Program-made: the position numbers and the translations under genes
The notes under the pieces: model-generated
The model's input: the letters and a program-made list of their open reading frames with translations, nothing else
What the model was told of the DNA's origin: nothing
The model's database searches: none
Shown here: positions 11,628 through 64,000 of the stretch, piece by piece
Numbering within the stretch: position 1 is the stretch's first letter
How the letters are laid out: the number at the start of each line of letters is the position of its first letter
Source: Eledone cirrhosa
Lineage: Eukaryota
DNA length: 64,000 nt
Direction of reading: 5' to 3'
NCBI GenBank assembly: GCA_964016885.1
Contig: OZ024761.1
Location: 11,656,001-11,720,000, forward strand

Positions 11628-11743
11628 CTAAGTTTGTGTCAGCGCGGATGATAAGCTGGGCTTTATCCTTGAATGGTTTCACGTGTAAGTTACCAATGCC
11701 TTTGTCAACCCAGTTTTTGTCTTTCTCATAAAACAGTTTACAT
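11628..11743 (-). CDS. NUP50: Nup50 coding exon 6, RanBD1 domain (CKLFYEKDKNWVDKGIGNLHVKPFKDKAQLIIRADTNL)
   Basis: RanBD motifs CKLFY, KG.G.LH.KP and QL..RADT.LG. gctgtag| acceptor, G|gtatgt donor; 116 nt, phase 2/1. Confidence 0.95.
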
Positions 11744-12381: not shown

Positions 12382-12478
12382 CTTTTACTAAATACTGAAC
12401 CTTCTTCCTTGATCTCCTTCACTTCAGCTTTAGGGGGCACATATTCATCTTCTTCTTCAGTGGCCCTTCCTTTGGCAG
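12382..12478 (-). CDS. NUP50: Nup50 coding exon 5 (AKGRATEEEDEYVPPKAEVKEIKEEGSVFSK)
   Basis: gtctttcag| acceptor, AG|gtaaga donor; 97 nt, phase 1/2; PPK..V.E..EE entry into the Ran-binding domain. Confidence 0.92.
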
Positions 12479-12567
12479 CTGAAAGACAGGAACATCACAA
12501 GACAGCTTAAATGTGGTGTAGGGGGCAGAAATGGTGAACTAAATGAGCTGCAGTAATTATGTAACAC

Positions 12568-13141
12568 TATGTCATTAACCCTTTCATTACCATATTTCCA
12601 ATGAAAGACACTGTCTATGTCATTAACCCTTTCATTACCATATTTCTAATGAAAGACACTGTCTATGTCATTAACCTTTTCATTACCATATTTCTAATGA
12701 AAGACACTGTCTATGTCATTAACCTTTTCATTACCATATTTCTAATGAAAGACACTGTCTATGTCATTAACCCTTTCATTACCATATTTCTAATGAAAGA
12801 CACTGTCTATGTCATTAACCTTTTCATTACCATATTTCTAATGAAAGACACTGTCTATGTCATTAACCTTTTCATTACCATATTTCTAATGAAAGACACT
12901 GTCTATGTCATTAACCTTTTCATTACCATATTTCTAATGAAAGACACTGTCTATGTCATTAACCTTTTCATTACCATATTTCTAATGAAAGACACTGTCT
13001 ATGTCATTAACCTTTTCATTACCATATTTCTAATGAAAGACACTGTCTATGTCATTAACCTTTTCATTACCATATTTCTAATGAAAGACACTGTCTATGT
13101 CATTAACCTTTTCATTACCATATTTCTAATGAAAGACACTG
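12568..13141. repeat. 48-bp tandem repeat (~12 copies) of a TTAA-CCCTTT MITE left end
   Basis: Unit ctatgtcattaacc(c/t)tttcattaccatatttctaatgaaagacactgt; the MITE body continues to ~13270. Confidence 0.93.
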
Positions 13142-14000: not shown

Positions 14001-14234
14001 CGTTGGAAGCAGTCAAACTAGTGGCAAAGGAGAAAGATGATGACTGACTGTCGGCTGCTTTGAAGTTAAATCCACTGAAAGCTGGTGTTGTAGATACACT
14101 GGTTGATGTAACGGATGTGGTTATTGTAGCGCTACTGCTTGAGAAGATGGAGTTATTCGCAGAGAATTTCGGCCAACCACCTGGATTCTTCACTTCCGCT
14201 TTGGTTCCATTGTCATCTTTCAAGCTTTCAAAAG
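14001..14234 (-). CDS. NUP50: Nup50 coding exon 4 (FESLKDDNG...PAFSGFNF...SFSFATSLTASN)
   Basis: ttattgtag| acceptor, G|gtaaga donor; 234 nt, phase 1/1 fits neighbours; FG-nucleoporin-like FSGFNF and SFSF motifs. Confidence 0.88.
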
Positions 14235-15478: not shown

Positions 15479-16067
15479 TGGACAAAGAACTGGATTTCTG
15501 TTGTGGGGGTGATGTGACGGTGTTGCCAGCCTCATCTTTAGAGTCTTCTGCCCTGGCGTGGGATTCATCCTGGATAGTCTTCAGGTATTTCTCGTAGTCT
15601 TTGAAGATTGGCGTGAGAATGCAATAGGGATCCTTTGTCACGTGTTGCTGAAGCCACTTCAAAACACTCTCGTTCAGTTTCTTCAACTGCACGTGCAGCT
15701 TGCTGTCAGAGTCTGTGGATTTCACAGTAGGAGCTGCACCAGCACCAGCTGCACTGGTCATAAAACCATTCTTGCTGGTGATGCTGCCGCTGCCAAAGCT
15801 CACAGTGGCTGTTGTCGGATTAGAGAGAAAGTTGCTACTGCTGTCGCCGAAAGGTTTAATGGTGCTGTTTGATAGAGTGGTTGCAGTTGTGACAGTAGCA
15901 GTAGCAGTAGTAGTAGTAGTAGTACCAGCTGTAGTAGTAGTAGTAATAATAAAACTGCTACTAAGATCACTACCACCTTTAACAACACTACTGCTGTTGG
16001 AGCTACTGTTTAGGGAAGGAGATGTAAACCCAGCAAAACTGGCAAATAAACCACTTCCTGAAGAAGT
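15479..16067 (-). CDS. NUP50: Nup50 coding exon 3 (Ser/Thr-rich FG region plus LKKLNESVLKWLQQHVTKDPYCILTPIFKDYEKYL)
   Basis: Conserved central Nup50 helix (LN.SV..W...HV...P.C.LTPIF.DYEKYL). tgtttcag| acceptor, A|gtaaga donor; 589 nt, phase 0/1. Confidence 0.95.
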
Positions 16068-16463: not shown

Positions 16464-16971
16464 ACTTTATTTCACGCTGCCTCTTCTGCCTAGAATTGCA
16501 ACTGGTAGATAGTATCAGCCGTGGAAAGACCAATGAAAACATTGTTTCCTTGGTCCGATTTCACAAGTTCCACCCCATTTGGAAAACGAAAGAGGTCTGG
16601 GATCTTGCTGACCGAATCCCCAGGAGTTTTAAAGTGTTTTACCCATTATTTTCCATGTAAACACATGCTGGCTAGGGTTGGACATGGGTCATTTACAGAC
16701 CAAGGCAGTACTGGTCTGTAAATGACCTGTGTCCAAACATTAGATGGACCAGGGTACATATCTAGTTGACACACATCTTCCAGTATTGGCACGATTTCTA
16801 CAGCAGGATGCCCTACCTAACACTAACCCCTTACTAAAACAAAAACTAAATAACATTACAGATGCAAAATATAAATCCCTCTAAACTGGTGTCCCAGCAT
16901 GGCCCAGTCTAATTGAAACAATTCTAAAGGGGGGGGGGGGGGGTACAACAACAGACATGAAATATACTCAC

Positions 16972-17055
16972 CGTTGAAGTCGTGGATCTTCGTTTGGCCT
17001 TTATTATATTTCGCTGTTTCAAGACTTCTTTCTTTGCTGCAACAAACTCACCAGC
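16972..17055 (-). CDS. NUP50: Nup50 coding exon 2 (AGEFVAAKKEVLKQRNIIKAKRRSTTST)
   Basis: Contains the VLKxRxIxKAKRR motif of the Nup50 N-domain. ttttctgtag| acceptor, ACG|gtgagt donor; 84 nt, phase 0/0. Confidence 0.92.
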
Positions 17056-18245
17056 CTACAGAAAATAGTAGTTGATAGCTTCTGTTACCTAAGTGTCTAA
17101 AACTCACCAGCCTACAGAAAATACAAGTAGTTGATAGCTTCTGTTACCTAAGTGTCTAAAACTCACCAGCCTACAGAAAATACAAGTAGTTGATAGCTTC
17201 TGTTACCTAAGCGTCTAAAACTCACCAGCCTACAGAAAATACAAGTAGTTGATAGCTTCTGTTACCTAAGCGTCTAAAACTCACCAGCCTACAGAAAATA
17301 CAAGTAGTTGATAGCTTCTGTTACCTAAGTGTCTAAAACTCACCAGCCTACAGAAAATACAAGTAGTTGATAGCTTCTGTTACCTAAGTGTCTAAAACTC
17401 ACCAGCCTACAGAAAATACAAGTAGTTGATAGCTTCTGTTACCTAAGCGTCTAAAACTCACCAGCCTACAGAAAATACAAGTAGTTGATAGCTTCTGTTA
17501 CCTAAGCGTCTAAAACTCACCAGCCTACAGAAAATACAAGTAGTTGATAGCTTCTGTTACCTAAGTGTCTAAAACTCACCAGCCTACAGAAAATACAAGT
17601 AGTTGATAGCTTCTGTTACCTAAGCGTCTAAAACTCACCAGCCTACAGAAAATACAAGTAGTTGATAGCTTCTGTTACCTAAGCGTCTAAAACTCACCAG
17701 CCTACAGAAAATACAAGTAGTTGATAGCTTCTGTTACCTAAGCGTCTAAAACTCACCAGCCTACAGAAAATACAAGTAGTTGATAGCTTCTGTTACCTAA
17801 GTGTCTAAAACTCACCAGCCTACAGAAAATACAAGTAGTTGATAGCTTCTGTTACCTAAGTGCCTAAAACTCACCAGCCTACAGAAAATACAAGTAGTTG
17901 ATAGCTTCTGTTACCTAAGTGTCTAAAACTCACCAGCCTACAGAAAATACAAGTAGTTGATAGCTTCTGTTACCTAAGTGTCTAAAACTCACCAGCCTAC
18001 AGAAAATACAAGTAGTTGATAGCTTCTGTTACCTAAGTGTCTAAAACTCACCAGCCTACAGAAAATACAAGTAGTTGATAGCTTCTGTTACCTAAGTGTC
18101 TAAAACTCACCAGCCTACAGAAAATACAAGTAGTTGATAGCTTCTGTTACCTAAGTGTCTAAAACTCACCAGCCTACAGAAAATACAAGTAGTTGATAGC
18201 TTCTGTTACCTAAGTGTCTAAAACTCACCAGCCTACAGAAAATAG
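17044..18245. repeat. 59-bp tandem repeat (~20 units) overlapping the NUP50 exon-2 acceptor
   Basis: aaactcaccagcctacagaaaata occurs 21 times; first period 56 bp, then 59 bp. Confidence 0.96.
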
Positions 18246-18534
18246 ATAAAGAAACAAGGTTGACTAATTTCCATTGTTGGGGATATGGCTCTATTGAAGT
18301 AGTTAACAAAATACACTCTGTAGACCAATGGGAACAGACATGTGATCGAGATGTGGGTCCCACCCAGCCTGTCTGAGCACTCAGTAGAATGTAGGAACTT
18401 GTGTAATCAAGATACAGCCCCTCCCTGGACTTCTGAGAGTTCAGTAACTCTGCTGGGGTATTAGACTTAGTTTTTGACAACCTGTCCAACCCTTCTTAAG
18501 AAAGAAAATAGACGTTAAATGATGATACACACAC

Positions 18535-18711
18535 TACAGTAAATGTGGTTGGGGTTAGGAAGGGCATCCAGCCGTAGAAAACCTGCCAGACAGTCCTATA
18601 TGAGCGAGACACGGTCACCCGACCAACCTTGCCTCAAGTGGGACACCTCCCGTCTAACCCATGCTAGCGTGGAAGATGGACGTTAAACGAAGATGATGAT
18701 GATGATGATGA
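18535..18711 (+). mobile_element. Isolated RTE 3' tail
   Basis: Same 3' UTR motif and (GAT)n tail. Confidence 0.75.
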
Positions 18712-18729
18712 TATATATGTGTGCGTGTG

Positions 18730-19043: not shown

Positions 19044-20373
19044 AAGGCCGAGGGTGTCTTGGCATCACTCAGCAAGACCTTTGTTAGCCGCTCTCCAGCC
19101 ATCTATTTAAAGCTGTATACAGCTATGGTACGACCACACTTGGAATTCGCATCATCAGTCTGGAACCCCTATCTTGCTCCTGGAAACTGTTCAGAGACAT
19201 GCAACCAAGCGCATACCCTCCATCAGACACCTACCATACTCTGAACGCCTTGCTTCCCTGGGCATGGAGTCATTGAAGCTCCGACGTCTGGCAATGGACT
19301 TGGTAAACACCCACAAAGTTATTAACCATCTCGCCAACAACAACTCTGAGCACCTTTTTGATCTCCATGTGTCTAACACACATGGACATGCCTACAAAGT
19401 CAGAAAACAGCACAGCTCCCATGACTTTCGTAAACATTTTTTCACGCTCAGAGTTGCTGAAGCATGGAACAAACTCCCTGCATCAGTTGTTAGCTGCCGA
19501 GACACTGCATCCTTTAAAACCTCCATGGAACAAACTACCTGCGTCAGTTGTTAGCTGTCGAGACACTGCATCCTTTAAAACCTCCATGGAACAAACTACC
19601 TGCAACAGTTGTTAGCTGCTGAGACACTGCATCCTTTAAAACCTTCATGGAACAAACTACCTGCATCAGTTGTTAGCTGCCGAGACACTGCATCCTTTAA
19701 AACCTCCATGGAACAAACTACCTGCATCAGTTGTTAGCTGTCGAGACACTGCATCCTTTAAAACCTCCATGGAACAAACTACCTGCATCAGTTGTTAGCT
19801 GTCGAGACACTGCATCCTTTAAAACCTCCATGGAACAAACTACCTGCATCAGTTGTTAGCTGTCGAGACACTGCATCCTTTAAAACCTCCATGGAACAAA
19901 CTACCTGCATCAGTTGTTAGCTGTCGAGACACTGCATCCTTTAAAACCTCCATGGAACAAACTACCTGCATCAGTTGTTAGCTGTCGAGACACTGCATCC
20001 TTTAAAACCTCCATGGAACAAACTACCTGCATCAGTTGTTAGCTGTCGAGACACTGCATCCTTTAAAACCTCCATGGAACAAACTACCTGCATCAGTTGT
20101 TCGCTGTCGAGACACTGCATCCTTTAAAACCTCCATGGAACAAACTACCTGCATCAGTTGTTCGCTGTCGAGACACTACATCCTTTAAGACACTCATGCT
20201 TCCCGAAATACGCCAAAACTACACCTAATATTCCCCCTTCCATACACATGCACACATGTGTATATCATGGCTCATGCACTGTTCATTTTCCTGATGTTTG
20301 TACATTACCCTATGTACTATACATACACCTTTTGATGAGTTGTAGTGCACCTGAGCACTGTACACAATATTTC

Positions 20374-25828: not shown

Positions 25829-28800
25829 TCAGCATGTACCCATGGGAGGTCGGGTACCCTGTATTACTGCGTGACGCCAGAAGTCACGGTCGTGTGTCAT
25901 TGACTTTGAGAGGTGTAGTTGGGTAAGGTCGGCTTTTATCACCTCATCCCAAGTCATCTTGGGTCTCCCCACTCCGCGGTTTCCATCAACTTCTAGTGCT
26001 CTGCACCTTTTTATGCAGCTGTCATCCTTCATACGCATCACATGTCCATACCAGCGTAACCGCCTCTCCTGCACGCAGCATTTGATTCCTCTTATGCTCA
26101 GTCTCTCTCTCAATTCATTTATGCTTTGTCGTTCACGTATATTACTGTTACACATCCATCGGAGCATGCAGGCTTCGTTTCTCTCTAATCTACGTAAGTC
26201 TTCCACCTTCAGCGCCCAGGTCTCACTACCATGCAACATCGCTGTTCGGATACACGCATCATACAGTCTGCCTTTCATTCTGAGGGAGAAGCCTTTTGCA
26301 GCTAGCAGTGGTAGTAGTTCCCTAAACTTCTTCCATCCCGTTCTTACCCTAGTTATTGTACTTTCTGAGCACCCACCTCCGTTGCTAATTCGGTCACCTA
26401 GGTAGCAGAAGCTGTCTACTGTTTCTACAGGGCCCTCCCAGAGATTGGTGGTACTTGTTTCCTGTGGCTGTTTGCTTGCTGTTTCAGCACAGCTGCTGCA
26501 TGTGAATCCTACATTCTTAATTAAGCTTCCTGAGATCCCGCTACATCTCTTGTGTACCCATTGTTTGCATTTGGGGCAAAGAATGGAGTTCCTACCTACA
26601 CCTTTCCTACATACTGAGCAAGGCCATTTCCCTGAGGGGATCTGGGTTCTGTTTTCTCGTCTACTTATAAGGACCTTAGTCTTTGTCATGTTGACTTTGA
26701 GGCCCTTTCTCTCTAGTCCCTGCTTCCAGGTTTGGAATTTATTCTCTAGTTCTACCATAGATTCAGCTATGAGTGCGAGGTCATCAGCATACAGGAGTTC
26801 CCATGGGCATCCGGTCTTAAACTCCTCCGTTATTGCCTGCAGGACTATGATGAACAGGAGAGGGCTAAGAACAGAGCCCTGGTGGACCCCAACCTGTACG
26901 CTAAATTCCTCGCTATACTCATTGCCAATCCTAACTTTGCTGACTGCTCCCCTATACATGGCTTGTACCGCTTTCACAAGCCATTCATCTACTCCTAGTT
27001 TTCTAAGAGCCCACCAGATTACTGCACGTGGAACTCTGTCAAAGGCTTTCTCAAGGTCGACAAATGCCAAGTAGAGTGGCTTACTTTTAGCTAGGTACTT
27101 TTCCTGTAATTGCCTCACAAGGAAGAGCGCATCAGTGGTGCCTTTCCCTGGAACAAACCCAAATTGCATCTCGTCTATATTCACCCGGTCCCTAATCAGC
27201 TGTGCTATAACTCTTTCTGTTACTTTCATGACCTGGTCCATCAACTTTATACCTCTATAGTTTCCTCTATCTAGTGCATCGCCTTTACCTTTGTAGCAGT
27301 TGACAATGATGCTACTGCACCAATCTTTTGGTATGGCCCCCTCTAGTATTACCTGGTTAACGATACGTGTGGTTATAGTGTGACCTACAGACCCAGATGC
27401 CTTCAGCATCTCGGCAGCTATACCCGATGGACCGGTTGCCTTCCCTATCTTCATATCTCTGATTGCCTTACTTACTACGCTGCCGCTGACTTGTACTGCT
27501 GGTCCCTCTATAGGGTCTACGTGGGGTAGGGTCTCTTCTTCCCATGCATTCTCCTCATTTAGTAATCTATCATAATGACTCTTCCATGCATCTTTCTTCT
27601 CAGCACTTGTGAGGGCAAGCTCACCTTTATCATTCCGGATACACTTCTCTCCAATGACATCACAACTATCTCTGACACACTGCCTCGCAATCTTGAATAC
27701 CTCCTGTTTCTGGTCCTCACGTTGTAAAACATGCTTGAATTTTCTATCCTCTGCTTCCCTCCTAGCTAAGTATACTTGTCGCCTAGCTTCCCTCTTGGTC
27801 TCTATGTAATGTACCCTGCTCCCCCCGTTCTTCCATTCTTTCCATGCCTGTCTCTTGGCCTTGACTGCTTCATCTACCTTATTGTTCCACCACCAAGTCA
27901 CTCTCCTCCTGCTTGAGGTCTTACTCCAGCCACAAACCTCATCCGTCGCCTCTAGTAAGTTATTTTTTAGGAACTCCCAGTTCTCTTCTACGTTAAATGT
28001 CTCTATCTGTTCTTCTTTACTGTCGTAGGCGTTGAGTAAAATATCTTTAAATCTGTTACTGGTTGAGGGGACTTTCAGCTTCCAGATCTTTCTTCTCCAG
28101 GTTGGCCTCTGTTTCAGGGCTCGTCTAGTTCTGACCGTGAGGTCGCTGACAACTAAGCTATGTTGGGATGTACATTCCTCACTAGGGAAGGCTTTTGTGT
28201 TTACGACCGTCCATCTGTCACGTCCTCTGATGAGGATAAAATCTAACTGACTAGAGTGCTCCCCTGATCTATAGGTGATCAGGTGGTTGTCGGGTTTTTT
28301 AAAGTTTGTGTTACATATCGACATGTCATTGGCGTCGCAGAATTCTAGAAGTCTGAATCCTTCCTCATTCCTTGTGCCAACTCCATGGCCTCCATGTACT
28401 CTATTGAAGCCGTCGCAGTGTTTACCTACGTGTCCGTTAAAATCTCCTGCAATGATTAGGAAGTCCTTGTCGTCTGTTAGAGCAGTAGTGTGTATTAGGG
28501 ACTCGTAAAACCTATCCTTAAGTTCGTCTGGCAGCCCCGATTGGGGTGCGTAAGCTGATATTATTGTGGTAATTGTCTTATTCAGGACTAGTCTGAGTTT
28601 AATGATTCTTGCATTTACCCTTTACACTGAGATTACTTTATCTACCCACTTGTCAGCTAATAGTATACCTACACCACCCATCCCATCGTCATTTCCCACC
28701 CAGAAAAATTTGTAGCACTGGCTTTTTCCTACAAGGACTCTAGCAGACCCTCCTCTCCATCTAGTCTCTTGCACACAGCATACATCAACTTCCTTTCGCT

Positions 28801-28948
28801 CTAGCATTTCTACGATTTCTCCTGCTCTTCCTTTCATTGAGCCTACATTGATGGTACCAACTCGGAGTTTTGGGCATTTGTCGACACTCGTAGGGGAGGG
28901 TCTCTGGGTTGGCGCTTCACGTGGGTGCTTGGTAGCTCGCAGATTCAT
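25829..28948 (-). pseudogene. RTE ORF (APE endonuclease + reverse transcriptase + PHD-like finger), ~1039 codons with one in-frame TAA at 28624-28622
   Basis: ORFs 28622..28948 and 25829..28324 share a frame and the gap reads through. Motifs GTINVGSM, CVQETRW, GDFNGH, LDFIL, QFGF, DLEKAFD, GVHQGSVLSP, YADD, RLRWYGHVMR. Confidence 0.92.
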
Positions 28949-29189
28949 ATTTCATCTATTGATTCAGAGTTGCTCGTGTATTCCCAGCTCATCCATCCCT
29001 AACGGTGGGAAAATTGAGGGCTAGAAGGACAGTGGTGGTGGGGTAATGGCAGGGTGTGTTGGGATGCGCCAGAGGAGGAGAGAGTTAGTTAGGCAGGTAG
29101 TAGCAGCAGCAGCAGTGGAAATGGCATGCTAGGTTTGATTGGTCGAATAGACTATGGTGGTGTGTGGGGGTGGGGGGGAGGGAAATTGT

Positions 29190-33476: not shown

Positions 33477-34985
33477 GTATCGTGGCTCTTAGAAAACTAG
33501 GTGAAGATGAATGGCTTGTGAGAGCTATACAAGCCATGTATAAAGAAACAGTCAGCAAGGTTAGAATTAACGAATATAGCGAAGAATTTAGCGTAAAAGT
33601 TGGTGTTCATTAAGGCTCTGTCCTCAGCCCCCTCCTATTTATTATTGCCCTTTGGGCTATAACAGAGGAGTTCAAGACCGGCTGCCCATGGGAACTTCTA
33701 TACGCAGATGATCTAACTCTCATAGCTGAATCGATGGCTGAACTAGAGAAGAAATTCCAATCATGGAAGCATGGCCTAGAATCAAAAGGCCTTAAAGTTA
33801 ACTTGTCTAAGACTAAAATTCTAGTATGTAGAAAGGAAAATAGGTTACAGGTACCCTCTGGGAAATGGCCATGCTCAGAGAGTTGGAAAGGAGTAGGCAG
33901 AAATTCCATTTTATGTCCCAAATGCAAACTATGGGTACATAAAAGATGTAGTGGGATCACAGGTAAGCTATCTAAGAACATAGATTTTATATGTGGCCGA
34001 TACTCAGGTGCAATAAGTAGCAAGTGCCCACAGGATACTAGCTCCTTCTATTGCCCAGATGGTTCTATAGAAATAGTGGACACCTTCCGTTACCTGAGTG
34101 TCAAAATCAGCAGTGGTGGAGGGTGCTCTGAAAGTACAGTAGCCAGAGTCAGAACGGAATGGAAAAAGTTCAGAGAGCTAATACCACTATTGGCCACTAA
34201 GGGTTTCTCTCTAAAAATGAAAGGCAGGCTGTATGATGCCTGTATACGAACAACAATGCTGCATGGCAGTGAGACATGGGCTTTGTTTGCAGAGGATCTA
34301 CACAGATTGGAGAGGAACGAAGCATCCATGCTCCGTTGGATGTGTAATAGTAATATATGTGAACGGCAAAGCATAAATGAACTAAGTGAGAAATTAGGAA
34401 TAAGAGGGATCAGATGTTGTTTACTTGAGAGAAGACTACGTTGGTATGGTCACGTGATGCGCATGAAAGACGACAGTTGTATAAAAAACGTGCAGGGCGA
34501 TCAAAATTGATGGAAGTTACGGAGTAGGTAGACCCAGAAAAACCTGGGACAATCTGATAAATTCCGACTTTACACACTTACACCTCTCTAAGACAATGTC
34601 ACTCGACGGAGATCTTTGGCGCCACGCAGTCATACAGAAGACCCGCCTTGCCTATGTACAAAGCGAAACCTACAGTCAGTAGGCGCCTCTAACAAAAGTA
34701 CACCCCCGTCCCACTACCCCCACACCACTATTTCTCTCTAAAGTTATGTTGGTACCACAACATCCAGTCCTAAATAAATGAGGCCGTGTAGTAACACGGT
34801 AAATAGCTCCCAGTTCCACACTGTAAACGTGGTTGGTGTTAGGAAGGGTATCCAGCCATAGAAAACCTGCCAGATAGCCCTATACGAGCGAGACATAGTC
34901 ATCCGACCATTCTTACCTCAAATGGGACAATTCCCGTCTAACCCATGCTAGCGTGGAAGATAGACGTAAAACGATGATGATGAAG
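33477..34985 (+). mobile_element. Degraded 5'-truncated RTE LINE (RT C-half, PHD finger, 3' UTR)
   Basis: Homologous to 25.5-27 kb (YADD, WVHKRCSG, RLRWYGHVMR); contains a stop and frameshifts. Confidence 0.88.
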
Positions 34986-38520: not shown

Positions 38521-38598
38521 TCACACACACAAGACAGCTATATATATACACATAGTTACATACAAAACAGCTATATACACAGTTACACACAAGGCAGC

Positions 38599-38630
<32 letters not shown>

Positions 38631-38667
38631 AGACAGCTATATATATATATATATACACACAAGGCTG

Positions 38668-38700
<33 letters not shown>

Positions 38701-38870
38701 AACAATTACACACAAGACAGCTATATACACACACCCAAGGCAGTTATATATATATATACACACACACAAGGCAGTTATATATATATATATACACACACAA
38801 GACAGCTATATATACACACACATACACAAGACAGCTATATATATATATACACACACACACACAAGGCAGT

Positions 38871-38906
<36 letters not shown>

Positions 38907-38970
38907 AGACAGCTATATATATATACACACACACAAGACAGCTATATATATACACACACACAAGACATAC

Positions 38971-39039
38971 CTCCTCCTCTTCCTCTTCCTGGTCCCAATT
39001 CCTGTCGGTCAGCTCAGACGTAGCGATACGTTTAGCCAT
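38971..39039 (-). CDS. NUP50: Nucleoporin Nup50, first coding exon (MAKRIATSELTDRNWDQEEEEEE)
   Basis: Matches the Nup50 importin-alpha-binding N-terminus (MAKR..ELTDRNWDQE). Acceptor gaccag| at 39050-39049, ACC-ATG-G start context, donor GAG|gtatgt at 38970; 69 nt, phase 0. Confidence 0.95.
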
Positions 39040-42338: not shown

Positions 42339-42659
42339 GACAATAATGATGGTAATGCAGATATGATGTTGACCACAACGATCTCACCTTTTCTGTTCAA
42401 ACCAGCCACTCATACTGATGTTAAGGTATTGTTCTCAAAATAAATAATATCAAAATCTCAGATTTGATATTATGTAAGGTAAAGCCATTACCGTGAAAAT
42501 ACAATAGTATATGTAGAGTAATGTAAATGGTAAAGGGTTAAATAACAATAATGATAAGAAGCATTCCTATTTCCCAGCCCCCTTTTTTTGCTCCATCATC
42601 TTTGAATATCTAATATATATATATACCAGTGCATTACTGGACCCTTTTCTATATATAGA

Positions 42660-45652
42660 TACATCTGTTCGAATCCTACGTCAGAAGCATCGACCCTGAC
42701 TTCATCACAGTCACGGAAACATGGGCACATTCCTTACTCTGTGATGGGGTTTTCACCATTACTGGGTACAACCTTTTCCGCAAGGACCGCATTAACCGCC
42801 GTGGTGGTGGTGTGATGGTCTACGTTCGTTCAAACTTTTCGGTAATTCCTTGCGTTGATTTGAACGAATCACAGGAAGAAGTTTTTTTCTGTGACATACG
42901 TATGACCATGTCAACACTTCTGCTTGGTGTTGTTTATCGCCCCCCAAACTACCATCAGGACACACAGCTTTGCGATATCCTCAGAGTTGCTGCCAAGAAA
43001 ACAGCCACTTATGTGTTTATTGCAGGTGACTTCAATCATCCTGAGATCGATTGGGAAACCTTTCGTTGGCCACAGGGTGCAAACGATTTCCTTGAACTAG
43101 TGCTGGACTCAAACTGGTCACAAGTAGTCACCTCTCCAACAAGAGGTGACAACACTTTGGACCTGATCTTCACCACTACTCCTGAAGTGGTTATCAGTTG
43201 TACTACTGAGGAACCTCTAGGCGACTCTGATCATGCTATGATCATTGCCAATCTGGCACTTGAGGGCAGCAACAAAAACCAGAGCCATCTCCAATCTGCT
43301 TGCTTTGATTGGAAGAGGGCAGATTGGAACTTGTACTGCACTGAGCTACAGCGCCCAAACTGGCATGAGATGTATAACTCTGGAGATGTGAACTCTATAC
43401 TCCAGAGCATCCTGGACTCAATATGGATAGCGTGTGCAGCATCAGTGCCACGGAAGCGGAAAAATAACCACCCCAAAAGTGCAATCTGGGAAACTTCAGC
43501 AGTCCGACTTGCCAGGAAAGAACGTCGGAACGCTGAACGGGAATATAAACTGCATAGATCAGATGCCAACAGAAAAAAGCGGAATAAATCTTCTAACCAT
43601 CTCAAGCAAGTGACAAAGAAGGCAGTGCTTGAATTTGAACAGTGCATCGCAACCAATCCCGACAGTAAGGTGTTCTGGAAATATGTTCATTCAAAGCAGA
43701 GACTTCACTCTCCAGTTGGTCCTCTTCGCAATCCCCACACAAGCCAGATCACTGACGATCCCAAGGAATGCGCAGAACTCATTGCTGAGTGCTATGCAAG
43801 TATTTTTACTGTTGAAAACCAGAATGTACCATCTCCACCATCTCTAACATCAAATTCCATAACAACTATGGAATTTACACCTGCAATGTTGCGACGTCAC
43901 CTTAAGAATAAGCGCAACTATGCCTCCCCTGGTCTTGATGGTGTGACATACCTGCTTCTCAAACGTGGCGGGGATTTCCTTTTGCGCCAGCTTTCTTTTT
44001 TCTTTCAATACTGTCTCAGCAATGGTGCTACTCCAGAGCAGTGGAAAACTGCCAGTGTCATTCCCCTGTTCAAAAAGGGCAACCGCATGTCACCTGTCAA
44101 CTATCGTCCAGTCAGTCTTACTAGCTGTATGGCCAAACTGATGGAATCCTGTGTCAGAGAAACACTTTGGAACTTCTGGAGCTCTCACAGCCTCATCCGG
44201 CCCTCACAGTTTGGATTTATCCCTAACTCCAGCTGCTGTGATCAGCTTATCGAGTTCCTTGAGGACATCACCCGGATCACTGACAGCGGCTCATGGGTGG
44301 ATGTTGTTTACCTTGACTTTGCTAAGGCTTTTAATTCTGTGCCACACAAAAGACTTATGGCAAAACTCTCTGCAATGGGTGTGAGGGATGATCTTTTCGA
44401 CTGGCTGAAATCCTTCATTCTCAGCCGAAAGGAAGTAGTCACAGTTCTAGGACAGCATTCTTCACCATATGAGATGTCATCTGGTGTACCACAGGGATCT
44501 GTTCTTGGTCCTCTTTTGTTTGTGGCATATATTAATGACATAGATGCCAACTTACAGAATGCCACGGTACTAAAATATGCAGATGACATCAAGCTGTACC
44601 TTGAAATCAAAAGGACTGATCCTGAAATTTACAACTCTTTCCTACAATCAGACCTGGACACAATGCAGCAATGGATCACAGACTGGCAACTGAAGCTGGC
44701 TGTGGACAAGTGTACCACCATGCATTTTGGAAGGAAAAATCCAGCGTCCACATACTCCCTCCACAACACTGACATCAAAAAGTCCTCTTGTGAACGTGAC
44801 CTGGGCATTACTGTCAGCAACGATTTGCGTTGGACAAAGCATGTCTCTAAGATTGTCAAGAAGGCCGAGGGTGTCTTGGCATCACTCAGCAAGACCTTTG
44901 TTAGCCGCTCTCCAGCCATCTATTTAAAACTGTATACAGCTATGGTGCGACCACACTTGGAATTCGCATCATCAGTCTGGAACCCCTATCTTGCTCGGAA
45001 CATTGACCTCCTGGAAACTGTTCAGAGACGTGCAACCAAGCGCATACCCTCCATCAGACACCTACCATACTCTGAACGCCTTGCTTCCCTGGGCATGGAT
45101 TCATTGAAGCTCCGACGTCTGGCAGTGGACTTGGTGAATACCCACAAAGTTTTTAACCATCTCGCCAACTGCAACCCTGAGCGCCTCTTTGATCTCCATG
45201 TATCTAACACACGTGGACATGCCTACAAGATAAGAAAACAGCACAGCTCCCATGACTTTCGCAGACATTTTTTCACGCTCAGAGTTGCTGAAACATGGAA
45301 CAAACTGCCTGCGTCAATTGTTAGCTGCCGAGACACTGCATCCTTTAAGACACTCATGCTTCCCGAAATACGCCAAAACTACACCTGATGTGCCCCTTCC
45401 ATACACATGCACACATGTGTGCACTGTTCATTTTACTGATGTTTGTGCATTGCCCTATGTACTGTACATGCACTTTTTTGATGGGTTGTGGTGCACCTGG
45501 GCACTGTGCACAATATTTCATTATTGTTATTGTTATTATATCATGACTCATACACTGTTTATTTTCCTGACATTTGTACATTATTCTATGTACTATACAT
45601 GCACCTTTGATGAGTTGTAGTGCACCTGAGCACTGTACACAATAATTTCATT

Positions 45653-53119: not shown

Positions 53120-53356
53120 ATAAGTAGTGTCTTTCATTAGAAATATGGTAATGAAAGGGTTAATGACATAGACAGTGTCTTTCATTAGAAATATGGTAAT
53201 GAAAGGGTTAAAGACATAGACAGTGTCTTTCATTAGAAATATGGTAATGAAAGGTTTAAAGACATAGGTAGTGTCTTTCATTAGAAATATGGTAACGAAA
53301 GGGTTAATGGCATAGACAGTGTCTTTCATTAGAAATATGGTAACGAAAGGGTTAAA
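53120..53356 (-). repeat. Same 48-bp repeat, ~5 copies, reverse orientation
   Basis: Reverse complement of the 12.6-kb unit. Confidence 0.88.
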
Positions 53357-53761
53357 GGATGCATACATGAAGCTTGCACATGCAACAAGAAAATCTGCTT
53401 TAGGCTTACACTCAACTAAAGGACCTAATTTCTTTTTAAAGACCAACATCAAAAATGCGACATATATCCCTCTCCACACACTCTATTTAAACTTCTGTAT
53501 GAGTTCTACTTTGGCTGTGTTTCAGATTTCTTGAAATATTGCCAAACACTGAAGCTGATTTTGTTGTGAAAAATTATTAATGCAAGCTGTTCTAATCGCT
53601 TTAGTGGCGTTCTTGTAAACATGTTAGACCAAAGCTGTTGTAAACTGATGCTACTACTATTGCTGTCACTACTAGATAAATAGGTATTTTCGCTTAGACA
53701 GCACCAGAACTTAAAGAAACACATGACTGTAGATGAAATATGGTAAAGTAGATCAGCTCCA

Positions 53762-54021
53762 TCATTACCATATTTCTAATGAAAGACACTACCTATGTCA
53801 TTAACCCTTTCATTACCATATTTCTAATGAAAGACACTGTCTATGTCATTAACCCTTTCATTACCATATTTCTAATGAAAGATACTACCTATGTCATTAA
53901 CCCTTTCATTACCATATTTCTAATGAAAGACACTGTCTATGTCTTTAACCCTTTCATTACTATATTTCTAATGAAAGACACTGTCTATGTCATTAACCCT
54001 TTCATTACTATATTTCTAATG
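53762..54021 (+). repeat. Same 48-bp repeat, ~5.5 copies
   Basis: Unit shared with the 12.6-kb array. Confidence 0.88.
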
Positions 54022-57579: not shown

Positions 57580-58094
57580 ATTAACCGGTCATATCCGGCC
57601 AGAATTCTCTCGCCTCTTTCTGTTCAAACCAGCTGTAACCAGCCGTTCATACCGACGTGAAGGTATTGTTCTCAAAGTAGGTAATATCAAAATCATAGAT
57701 TTGATGCTATGTGAGGTAAAGCCTTTACTGTGAAAATACAATAGTATATATAGAGTAATGTAAATGTTATGTGAGGTAAAGCCTTTACTGTGAAAATACA
57801 ATAGTATATATAGAGTAATGTAAATGTTATGTGAGGTAAAGCCTTTACTGTGAAAATACAATAGTATATATAGAGTAATGTAAATGTTATGTGAGGTATT
57901 ATGTGAGGTAAAGCCTTTACTGTGAAAATACAATAGTATATATAGAGTAATGTAAATGTTTTGTGAGGTAAAGCCTTTACTGTGAAAATACAATAGTATA
58001 TATAGAGTAATGTAAATGTTATGTGAGGTATTATGTGAGGTAAAGCCTTTACTGTGAAAATAAAATAGTATATATAGAGTAATGTAAATGTTAA
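57580..58094. repeat. piggyBac-like MITE with a 60/72-bp subterminal tandem expansion (~6 units)
   Basis: tatgtgaggtaaagcctttactgtgaaaatacaatagtatatatagagtaatgtaaatgt is repeated. Confidence 0.85.
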
Positions 58095-58421: not shown

Positions 58422-59215
58422 CTATGGTACGACCACACTTGGAATTCGCATCATCAGTCTGGAACCCCTATCTTGCTCAGAACATTGACCTCCTGGAAAC
58501 TGTTCAGAGACATGCAACCAAGCACATACCCTCCATCAGACACCTACCATACTCTGAACGCCTTGCTTCCTTGGGCATGGATTCATTGAAGCTCAGACGT
58601 CTGGCAATGGACTTGGTAAACACCCACAAAGTTATAAAACATCTCGCCAACAACAACCCTGAGGACCTTTTTGATCTCCATATGTCTAACATACATGGAC
58701 ATGCCTACAAAGTCAGAAAACAGCACAGCTCCCATGACTTTCGGAAAGATTTTTTCATGCTTCGAGTTGCTGAAGCATGGAACAAACTACTTGCATCAGT
58801 TGTTAGCTGCCGAGATACTACATACTTTAAAACCTCCATGGAACAAACTACCTGTGTCAGTTGTTAGCTGCCGAGACACTGCATTCTTTAAAACCTCCAT
58901 GGAACAAACTACCTGTGTCAGTTGTTAGCTGCCGAGACACTGCATCCTTTAAAACCTCCATGGAACAAACTACCTGTGTCAGTTGTTAGCTGCCGAGACA
59001 CTGCATTCTTTAAAACCCTCATGCTTCCCGAAATTCGCCAAAACTACACCTGATGTCGCCCTTCCATACACATGCACACATGTGTATATCATGACTCATG
59101 CACTGTTCATTTTCCTGATGTTTGTACATTACCCTATGTACTATACATACACTTTTGATGAGTTGTAGTGCACCTGAGCACTGTACACAATATTTTCATT
59201 ATTATTATCATATTA
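58422..59215 (+). mobile_element. 3' fragment of the CR1-type LINE carrying 4 copies of the same 61-bp unit (58776-59020)
   Basis: MVRPHLEFASSVWNP... matches the 42.7-45.7 kb element; (ATT)n tail. Confidence 0.9.
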
Positions 59216-62951: not shown

Positions 62952-64000
62952 TTAACCCTTTAGCATTTAAACTGGCCATAACCAACCCCTTATACTGACA
63001 TTAAGGTATTGTTCTCAAAATAAATAATATCAAAATCTCATAGATTCTATATTATGTGAGGTAAAGCCTTTACCATGAAAATATAATAGTATATATAGAG
63101 TAATGTAAATGTTATGTGAGATATTATGTGAGGTAAAGCCTTTACCATGAAAATACAATAGTATATATAGAGTAATGTAAATGGTATGCGAGATATTATG
63201 TGAGGTAAAGCCTTTACTGGGATAATACAATAGTATATAGAGTAATGTAAATGTTATGTGAGATATTATGTGAGGTAAAGCCTTTACCATGAAAATATAA
63301 TAGTATATATAGAGTAATGTAAATGTTATGTGAGATATTATGTGAGGTAAAGCCTTTACTGTGAAAATACAATAGTATATATAGAGTAATGTAAATGTTA
63401 TGTGAGATATTATGTGAGGTAAAGCCTTTACTATGAAAATACAATAGTATATAGAGTAATGTAAATGTTATGTGAGATATTATGTGAGGTAAAGCCTTTA
63501 CCATGAAAATATAATAGTATATATAGAGTAATGTAAATGTTATGTGAGATATTATGTGAGGTAAAGCCTTTACCATGAAAATATAATAGTATATATAGAG
63601 TAATGTAAATGTTATGTGAGATATTATGTGAGGTAAAGCCTTTACCATGAAAATACAATAGTATATATAGAGTAATGTAAATGTTATGTGAGATATTATG
63701 TGAGGTAAAGCCTTTACTGTGAAAATATAATAGTATATATAGAGTAATGTAAATGTTATGCGAGATATTATGTGAGGTAAAGCCTTTACCATGAAAATAT
63801 AATAGTATATATAGAGTAATGTAAATGTTATGTGAGGTAAAGCCTTTACCATGAAAATATAATAGTATATATAGAGTAATGTAAATGTTATGCGAGATAT
63901 TATGTGAGGTAAAGCCTTTACCATGAAAATATAATAGTATATATAGAGTAATGTAAATGTTATGCGAGATATTATGTGAGGTAAAGCCTTTACCATGAAA
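62952..64000. repeat. piggyBac-like MITE left end followed by a 72-bp tandem array (13 or more units, runs off the window)
   Basis: ttaaccctttagcattta at 62952; 72-bp period from 63051. Confidence 0.9.

Follow-up and report, generated by a model that had tools for sequence, protein, structure and literature searches.

The acceptor of the second coding exon of NUP50 in this octopod stands at the end of a tandem array of 21 near-identical acceptors. The array is probably an intron–exon boundary repeat, whose unit was put together from the acceptor, the first 12 bases of the exon and an antisense fragment of a LINE, of which only the last copy is spliced, and which is tolerated as a near-neutral by-product. 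It is a mirage minisatellite, i.e., a member of a class described from amphioxus. The window is the whole stretch of DNA that was analysed; it is 64,000 nt long and all positions given here refer to it.

The NUP50 gene and its acceptor array

On the minus strand of the window, a GT–AG model comprising seven coding exons gives an open frame of 470 amino acids (Table 1). By its domain content the gene is a NUP50 ortholog, with a PF08911 match and a weak PF00638 (RanBP1) match within one open frame. Among 26 protein hits, the best matches were the Nup50 proteins of Octopus sinensis, O. bimaculoides and Argonauta hians. Coding exon 2 aligns to the Octopus and Argonauta proteins and is present, in spliced form, in one of the sequencing runs (X1, see below). 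The residues EE-AGEF across the exon 1–exon 2 junction are common to all three octopod proteins. Thus, exon 2 starts at position 17055, and the animal is an octopod. The first intron, opened by the donor after 38971, is 21,915 nt long and contains the acceptor array.

Two minor features of the coding sequence may be mentioned. In coding exon 3, a trinucleotide run (15880–15945) encodes a threonine-rich stretch, which is part of the reason why Nup50 has 470 amino acids here, compared with 421–422 in Octopus. Skipping of exon 2 would keep the frame (442 amino acids) while removing part of the NUP50 domain; such skipping was not seen in the contigs of run X1.

Table 1. Positions of the array, of the LINEs related to it and of the coding exons of NUP50 in the window.
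Feature	Position	Strand	Basis or remark
59-bp minisatellite of 20 units, with the 3′ splice site and the first 12 nt of exon 2 present 21 times	17044..18244	-	TRF (period 59, 20.4 copies, 99% matches) and motif positions
Copy 1 acceptor	18221..18262	-	AG at 18234-18233, own pyrimidine tract, 12 exon nt
Copy 21, acceptor used in the spliced transcript	17056..17068	-	AG at 17057-17056; LINE-derived DNA directly upstream
LINE fragment in the last unit (one per unit, about 35-40 nt)	17067..17101	+	Antisense to NUP50; repeat depth and matches in the window
Partial LINE (RT and PHD) with the best match, 34067-34106	33614..34510	+	Domain search
Long LINE (endonuclease, RT, PHD) in which the second match lies, 26427-26395	25829..28951	-	Domain search; in NUP50 intron
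NUP50 first coding exon	38971..39039	-	23 aa, 69 coding nt; PF08911 positions 1-23; loose end of X1 contig
NUP50 coding exon 2	16972..17055	-	84 nt, phase 0-0, AGEF...TST; PF08911 positions 26-52
NUP50 coding exon 3	15479..16067	-	Gene model; exon-3 letters before 16972 in X1 contig
NUP50 coding exon 4	14001..14234	-	GT-AG model, open 470-aa frame
NUP50 coding exon 5	12382..12478	-	Gene model
NUP50 coding exon 6	11628..11743	-	Start of Ran-binding domain by likeness to homologs; alone without Pfam match
NUP50 last coding exon, up to the stop codon	10125..10348	-	PF00638, E 0.0047, below the curated cut-off

The layout of the array is arm–(LINE–arm)×20, in which the arm is 25 nt long and consists of 13 intronic and 12 exonic nucleotides. 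From copy 1 to copy 21, successive acceptor AGs lie 59 nt apart 19 times and 56 nt apart at the last step (a 3-nt deletion), which agrees with the 21 copies, each with 12 exon nucleotides, that a sequence-only reading of this DNA had described; the AG is kept in 21/21 copies. The 20 units fall into few types: 11 are of the commonest type, 7 carry one A>G change, 1 has another single change and 1 has the deletion. The 19 inner units are at most one letter away from the commonest type, the last is the one with the 3-nt deletion, and the first is partial. Along the array, the unit variants are ordered AAAAAAxAGGGAGGAAGGAA. No site for EcoRI, PstI or SbfI occurs closer to the array than about 700 nt.

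Every unit also contains two cryptic donors, G/GTGAGT at +4 and TAG/GTAACA at +23, as had been claimed; a G/GTGAGT site is likewise found inside the real exon 2. When exon 1 was joined in silico to the upstream copies, a product of 27 amino acids resulted in 20/20 cases (the stop and the product length foreseen in the sequence-only reading), compared with 470 amino acids from the last copy. With the real exon-2 donor, exons starting at the upstream copies would range from 140 to 1261 nt, those of copies 20, 19 and 18 being 140, 199 and 258 nt long. The pyrimidine tract of copy 1 had been singled out as the best of the array: at positions -23 to -4 it is indeed slightly better, with 16/20 pyrimidines versus 14/20 in copies 2 and 21, but it is not exceptional, as the five downstream NUP50 acceptors have 12–18/20.

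Four of eight listed sequencing runs (X1, X2, X4 and X5) were aligned as contigs to positions 16845–17125, i.e., to exon 2 and the last unit only; the other four are X3 and the RAD-seq runs X6–X8. X2 and X4 are DNA runs of one sample, which is possibly the source of the assembly. X1 was made within that study from a second sample; none of the listed runs is recorded as RNA, and X1 was recognised as such from its spliced contig. X5 is from a related species (organism B) and another study.

Origin of the unit and of copy 1

The part of the unit that lies between the arms reads IQVVDSFCYL in the 59-nt units. In the DNA runs, positions 17067–17101 have a summed depth of 950–1950 and their contigs run into unrelated flanks; thus, this segment is a dispersed repeat. 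An exact search with 10- to 12-mers in the window for the source of the intronic part of the unit gave nothing useful. A gapped search in the window matched the segment to 34067–34106 (30/40 letters, score 48, the best of 20 shuffles scoring 37) and to 26427–26395 (score 38), and blastn within the window gave E values of 1e-4 and 0.003 for these two matches. Both targets sit in open reading frames with reverse transcriptase and PHD domains and are, thus, LINEs, presumably of the RTE-like kind. The piece in the unit is internal to the LINE open reading frame, and other copies of the LINE continue beyond 17101 while the unit does not. The 3′ end or tail of the LINE is absent from the unit, so that the piece is not taken for a plain retrotransposition; it would stem either from a later deletion or from a templated repair insert.

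Several LINE sequences were seen in the window. Two long frames are probably young insertions: one of 930 amino acids at 25829–28951 on the minus strand (endonuclease, reverse transcriptase and PHD, the start of the endonuclease being in a separate frame of 109 amino acids) and one of 909 amino acids at 42659–45388 on the plus strand (endonuclease and reverse transcriptase), upstream of NUP50. Closer to the array, at a distance of 230–480 nt on the upstream side of copy 1, there are short 3′-end-like pieces, decayed and near-intact, of the same family of dispersed repeats (18470–18515 and 18536–18720); they are oriented like the LINE scrap. The flank that adjoins copy 1 upstream was itself rejected as a continuation of the LINE, since 102/200 and 47/200 shuffles scored as high against the two copies in the window.

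The relative age of the LINE–acceptor junction can be seen from organism B. In run X5, one contig of 256 nt (depth 15.7) starts at 17088 with no fewer than 22 nt of the LINE fragment, crosses the acceptor and exon 2 and reaches the following intron. The exon has eight listed differences, of which six are silent (five computed, one by hand) and two change a residue; thus, the locus in organism B is a working ortholog. Where the array here has ACA, organism B has AGA, which is the LINE's own reading. As the LINE–acceptor junction is present in organism B too, the junction is older than the amplification. An array was not seen in the X5 contigs, a weak absence with a contig hole at 17105–17125; the depth over the shared 12 exon nucleotides was 15.7 in X5, compared with 64.8 in X2 and 63.3 in X4.

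Run X5 also contains head-to-tail repeats of the same LINE segment without any acceptor, in contigs on 17060–17102. These LINE-only units measure either about 40 nt (with joints 17102>17066 and 17102>17067 at depths of 126.4 and 35.4) or about 66 nt (depth 26.9 each), and the ends of the 40-nt unit nearly match those of the LINE part of the NUP50 unit. The LINE segment may be a duplication hot spot.

From these features a course of events can be proposed. LINE DNA would have been joined to the acceptor, at a microhomology of 5 nt, before this lineage and organism B separated: five letters (ATAGA on the plus strand) are common to the LINE and copy 1 at one end, and a short run of A at the other. 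The junction probably came with a 25-nt duplication of the acceptor and the start of the exon; the LINE DNA was either inserted and trimmed afterwards or put in by templated repair. The downstream duplicate would have kept the gene intact, and the old acceptor would have been left upstream as copy 1. In a second step, slippage or unequal exchange, made possible by the direct repeats of 25 nt on either side of the LINE scrap, may have expanded the 59-nt unit to about 20 copies in this lineage, like other arrays of this repeat-rich genome.

To regard copy 1 as the stranded original acceptor, as the sequence-only reading had in effect done, seems, judged from the sequence, somewhat the better choice. 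The direct repeat on both sides of the LINE DNA is 25 nt long (13 intronic and 12 exonic), with copy 1 and copy 21 exactly the same, and this identity breaks off sharply at the LINE boundary. Upstream of copy 1, the flank is not clearly LINE-like, whereas copies 2–21 are preceded by LINE DNA. That the LINE landed 12 bases inside a coding exon and was neutralised by a duplication that rebuilt the acceptor downstream has, taken as a statement about origin only, about an even chance of being correct.

The same neutral outcome could have been reached from another beginning, which would alter the first step only. Here, the LINE adjoined the acceptor, the duplication was microhomology-mediated, and copy 1 would represent an edge unit that has decayed; this may be so, although it is doubtful. 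It would fit organism B, in which the LINE–acceptor junction is shared without an upstream duplicate being seen, and a run of T common to exon positions +10 to +12 and the LINE could serve as a short microhomology. Edge units of mirages are also described, in the passages of that report drawn on here, as escaping homogenisation (PMC3087553). The flank of copy 1 can be aligned to the unit weakly (score 17). Such a score was reached, however, by 140/2000 shuffles and by 80/1524 real 41-mers (p about 0.05–0.07), and with a longer flank by 374/2000 shuffles; the likeness is thus not significant, and it requires two gaps. Further out the flank is not LINE (the 102/200 and 47/200 shuffles given above), and a decayed edge unit sits poorly with the exact 25-nt identity of copy 1 and copy 21 followed by a sharp break.

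Acceptor choice, regulation and the reality of the array

Run X1 yielded three contigs. One, of 632 nt and depth 47.5, runs unbroken from exon 1 through 17055–16972 into exon 3 (of its loose ends, the one behind 17057 has the letters of exon 1 and the one before 16972 those of exon 3), which is the canonical mRNA; the intron at 16845–16964 is without cover. As full-length Nup50 requires the skipping of 20 stop-containing copies, this contig bears out that such skipping takes place, and for the donor at 38971 it upholds the use of 17055, to the extent of one RNA run seen as contigs. It reaches 373 nt upstream of the exon 1–exon 2 junction, compared with 69 coding nucleotides; thus, transcribed sequence is present upstream of the start codon. 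The other two contigs are a LINE word of 31 nt and an array contig of 89 nt (depth 3.5), which is without exon-1 letters. The length of the latter (59+30) would correspond to one head-to-tail unit in a 31-letter graph, i.e., to unspliced intron, and a common decoy junction would be expected to branch the contig after the 12 shared bases. No decoy junction was found among the three X1 contigs (a single run in which NMD was active, seen as contigs, from which rare forms are lost). Taken as a rough ceiling, the depth of array RNA against that of the mRNA (3.5 versus 47.5) would allow mis-spliced mRNA at most about 7% of the steady state, contig depth being a poor measure.

Exon definition across long introns is established in splicing. 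By this mechanism, which would be the simplest account of why the last copy is chosen, exon 2 would be recognised as a unit across the 21.9-kb intron, and its donor would pair with the nearest acceptor, 84 nt off, which is the sole copy before true exon sequence. Some leak is nevertheless to be expected, as the acceptors of copies 18–20 are near-identical to the real one and their exons of 140–258 nt are of ordinary size. Leak products would end at codon 28 and would likely be targets of NMD, and a low-level leak to the upstream copies may be concealed in this way.

It had been suggested that copy number tunes expression, i.e., that the upstream copies are used appreciably, that their products are destroyed by NMD, and that the length of the array sets the level of Nup50. 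Such dose control is improbable, and a regulatory reading lacks support. All 20 upstream copies do stop at codon 28, the three nearest give exons of ordinary size, the tract of copy 1 is slightly better than those of copies 2 and 21 (16 versus 14/20), and NMD would conceal the products in a steady-state run. An early stop, however, is the usual result of reading into an intron, where a stop is mostly met within a few codons. Moreover, no decoy junction was seen among the three X1 contigs, and the total depth of array RNA sets the low, if poorly measured, ceiling given above. As the contigs of organism B showed no array, there is no sign of conservation, and the known mirages are silent according to the passages drawn on (PMC3087553, PMC3902484). 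The array would matter more only if the use of decoys scaled with its length. The fuller proposal, in which a LINE landed 12 bases inside the exon, was neutralised by the duplicated acceptor and became a length-variable NMD rheostat setting the dose of Nup50, is very improbable as a whole.

The absence of the array from raw reads had been named as what would undo the sequence-only reading. The array is real, and this is confirmed by the runs, while the copy number given here is the count in the assembly. The unit was found as multi-copy in both DNA runs, with contig depths of 59.2/46.7 in X2 and 59.6/46.3 in X4 against flank depths of 5.58 and 3.66. For the invariant part, the ratio of unit to flank is 10.6 in X2 and 16.3 in X4, contig depth not being a copy number. 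The depths thus show a real repeat of the right order of size (about 11–16 times the flank) rather than the exact figure of 20. In X2 and X4, the flank contigs contain the private last unit of 56 nt, joined to the exon, the unit is also present in X1, i.e., in the second sample, and the ordered pattern of unit variants fits a real turnover of units. That the array is an artefact of assembly, being absent or much shorter in the animal, is against this evidence highly improbable, even though no sequence record spans the array, both depth ratios are below 20, and X2 and X4 possibly come from the very sample behind the assembly.

At position 17094, the unit contig of X1 is of the minor (G) variant and those of X2 and X4 are of the major (A) variant. 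This could reflect a different make-up of units between the samples, or merely the depth of 3.5 in X1.

Lastly, it is scarcely credible that the motifs at +4 and +23 act as micro-exon donors or recursive splice points, giving forms with five residues less or four more or a stepwise removal of the 22-kb intron: both motifs do stand in every unit, and in-frame products can be written on paper (474 amino acids, or 465, five fewer, when the 4-nt piece up to the +4 donor is joined to the AG inside the exon, a joining that had been claimed correctly), but the X1 contig has the full 84-nt exon, a single micro-exon of 4 or 23 nt before the real acceptor would give 26 or 27 amino acids, the +4 donor is changed in the exon of organism B (17049–17050) and the motif is thus not conserved, and the array, as the last 1.2 kb of the intron, hardly shortens it. 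The micro-exon, recursive or minus-five joints that the sequence-only reading had raised were all missing from the three X1 contigs, mature-RNA contigs being unable to show recursive intermediates.

Kinship with known systems and other arrays in the window

Mirages in amphioxus are minisatellite-like tandem copies of an intron–exon boundary, with units of 10–160 bp, as set out in the passages drawn on (PMC3087553). They occur in Adh3, the globins BflGb6 and BflGb9, troponin C and PGBD5, and in these accounts the splice signals are kept and splicing is reported to be normal (PMC3087553, PMC3902484). Of the five mirage features taken from those accounts, the fifth of which is length instability between alleles or cells, four are found at NUP50: the duplication spans the boundary, the splice signals are kept, splicing is regular (one run, seen as contigs), and the units evolve in concert with differing edge units. 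The likeness is closest to BflGb6, in which the mirage, as described there, likewise covers an intron's 3′ end together with an exon's 5′ portion; the length of the NUP50 unit lies within the range reported for amphioxus, and splice signals are kept in both. The differences are that the NUP50 array is in a mollusc, with about 20 units at 99% identity, compared with 3–6 units at 81–100% given for BflGb6, and that the intronic part of its unit consists of a LINE fragment whose junction can be dated; the mechanism by which amphioxus mirages originate, by contrast, is called unclear in the text drawn on (PMC3087553).

Three other systems are comparable, each as far as the cited text describes it. 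The 37-bp VNTR in intron 7 of human F7 (PMC1557585) is also an exon-boundary VNTR with identical, normally silent pseudo-sites, in which the site beside the true exon wins. F7, however, concerns the donor side and has been tested with 50 constructs, which support a scanning model, whereas NUP50 concerns the acceptor side, with the last of 21 copies in use, and is known from sequence and contigs. Tandem duplication mediated by microhomology (PMC13167724) resembles the NUP50 array in that a unit between direct-repeat arms expands and is mostly neutral. Minisatellites derived from transposable elements (PMC9659126) resemble it in that units made of retroelement pieces are common. The NUP50 array differs from both of these in that its 25-nt arm is a working splice site and its unit a chimera of host junction and LINE, as far as these sources go. 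A search of the literature, which covered few subscription papers, found no cephalopod or octopus minisatellite at an intron or splice site, no acceptor array in cephalopods, no insertion-linked duplication of an acceptor and no LINE-seeded mirage.

The NUP50 locus extends mirages to the cephalopods. It offers a natural test of acceptor choice, with 21 near-identical 3′ splice sites of which the last one is used. What it adds is a traceable, LINE-linked origin with a joint that is older than the amplification, which bears on the question of mirage origin that is left open in the passages drawn on (PMC3087553).

Arrays are abundant in the window. When an array was defined by a period of at least 25, at least 3 copies, at least 85% matches and a non-simple unit, 17 arrays were found, covering 11,317 bp or 17.7% of the 64,000 nt, and the units of several of these match LINEs, dispersed repeats or other arrays. 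The chance that one array straddles any of the 12 splice junctions was 0.19 for the 17 arrays of the window and 0.15 for the 6 arrays of the gene, a rough estimate in which arrays were collapsed to single units and which applies before selection. A special mechanism is not needed.

Some of the other arrays share their units. Separate 61-bp arrays at 19463–20188 and 58776–59017 come from one segment near the end of a LINE open reading frame, of which an unamplified copy lies at 45294–45351; these are recurrent or mobilised LINE-derived minisatellites. The same 48-bp unit is found in three arrays, in both orientations (12567–13141, 53126–53357 and 53762–54021), and the same 60-bp unit in two (57704–58093 and 63049–64000). 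At the other end of the first intron, a degenerate TA/TG-rich array with units of 29–43 bp (38525–38970) begins immediately next to the first coding exon's donor, and its unit resembles the first bases of the intron.
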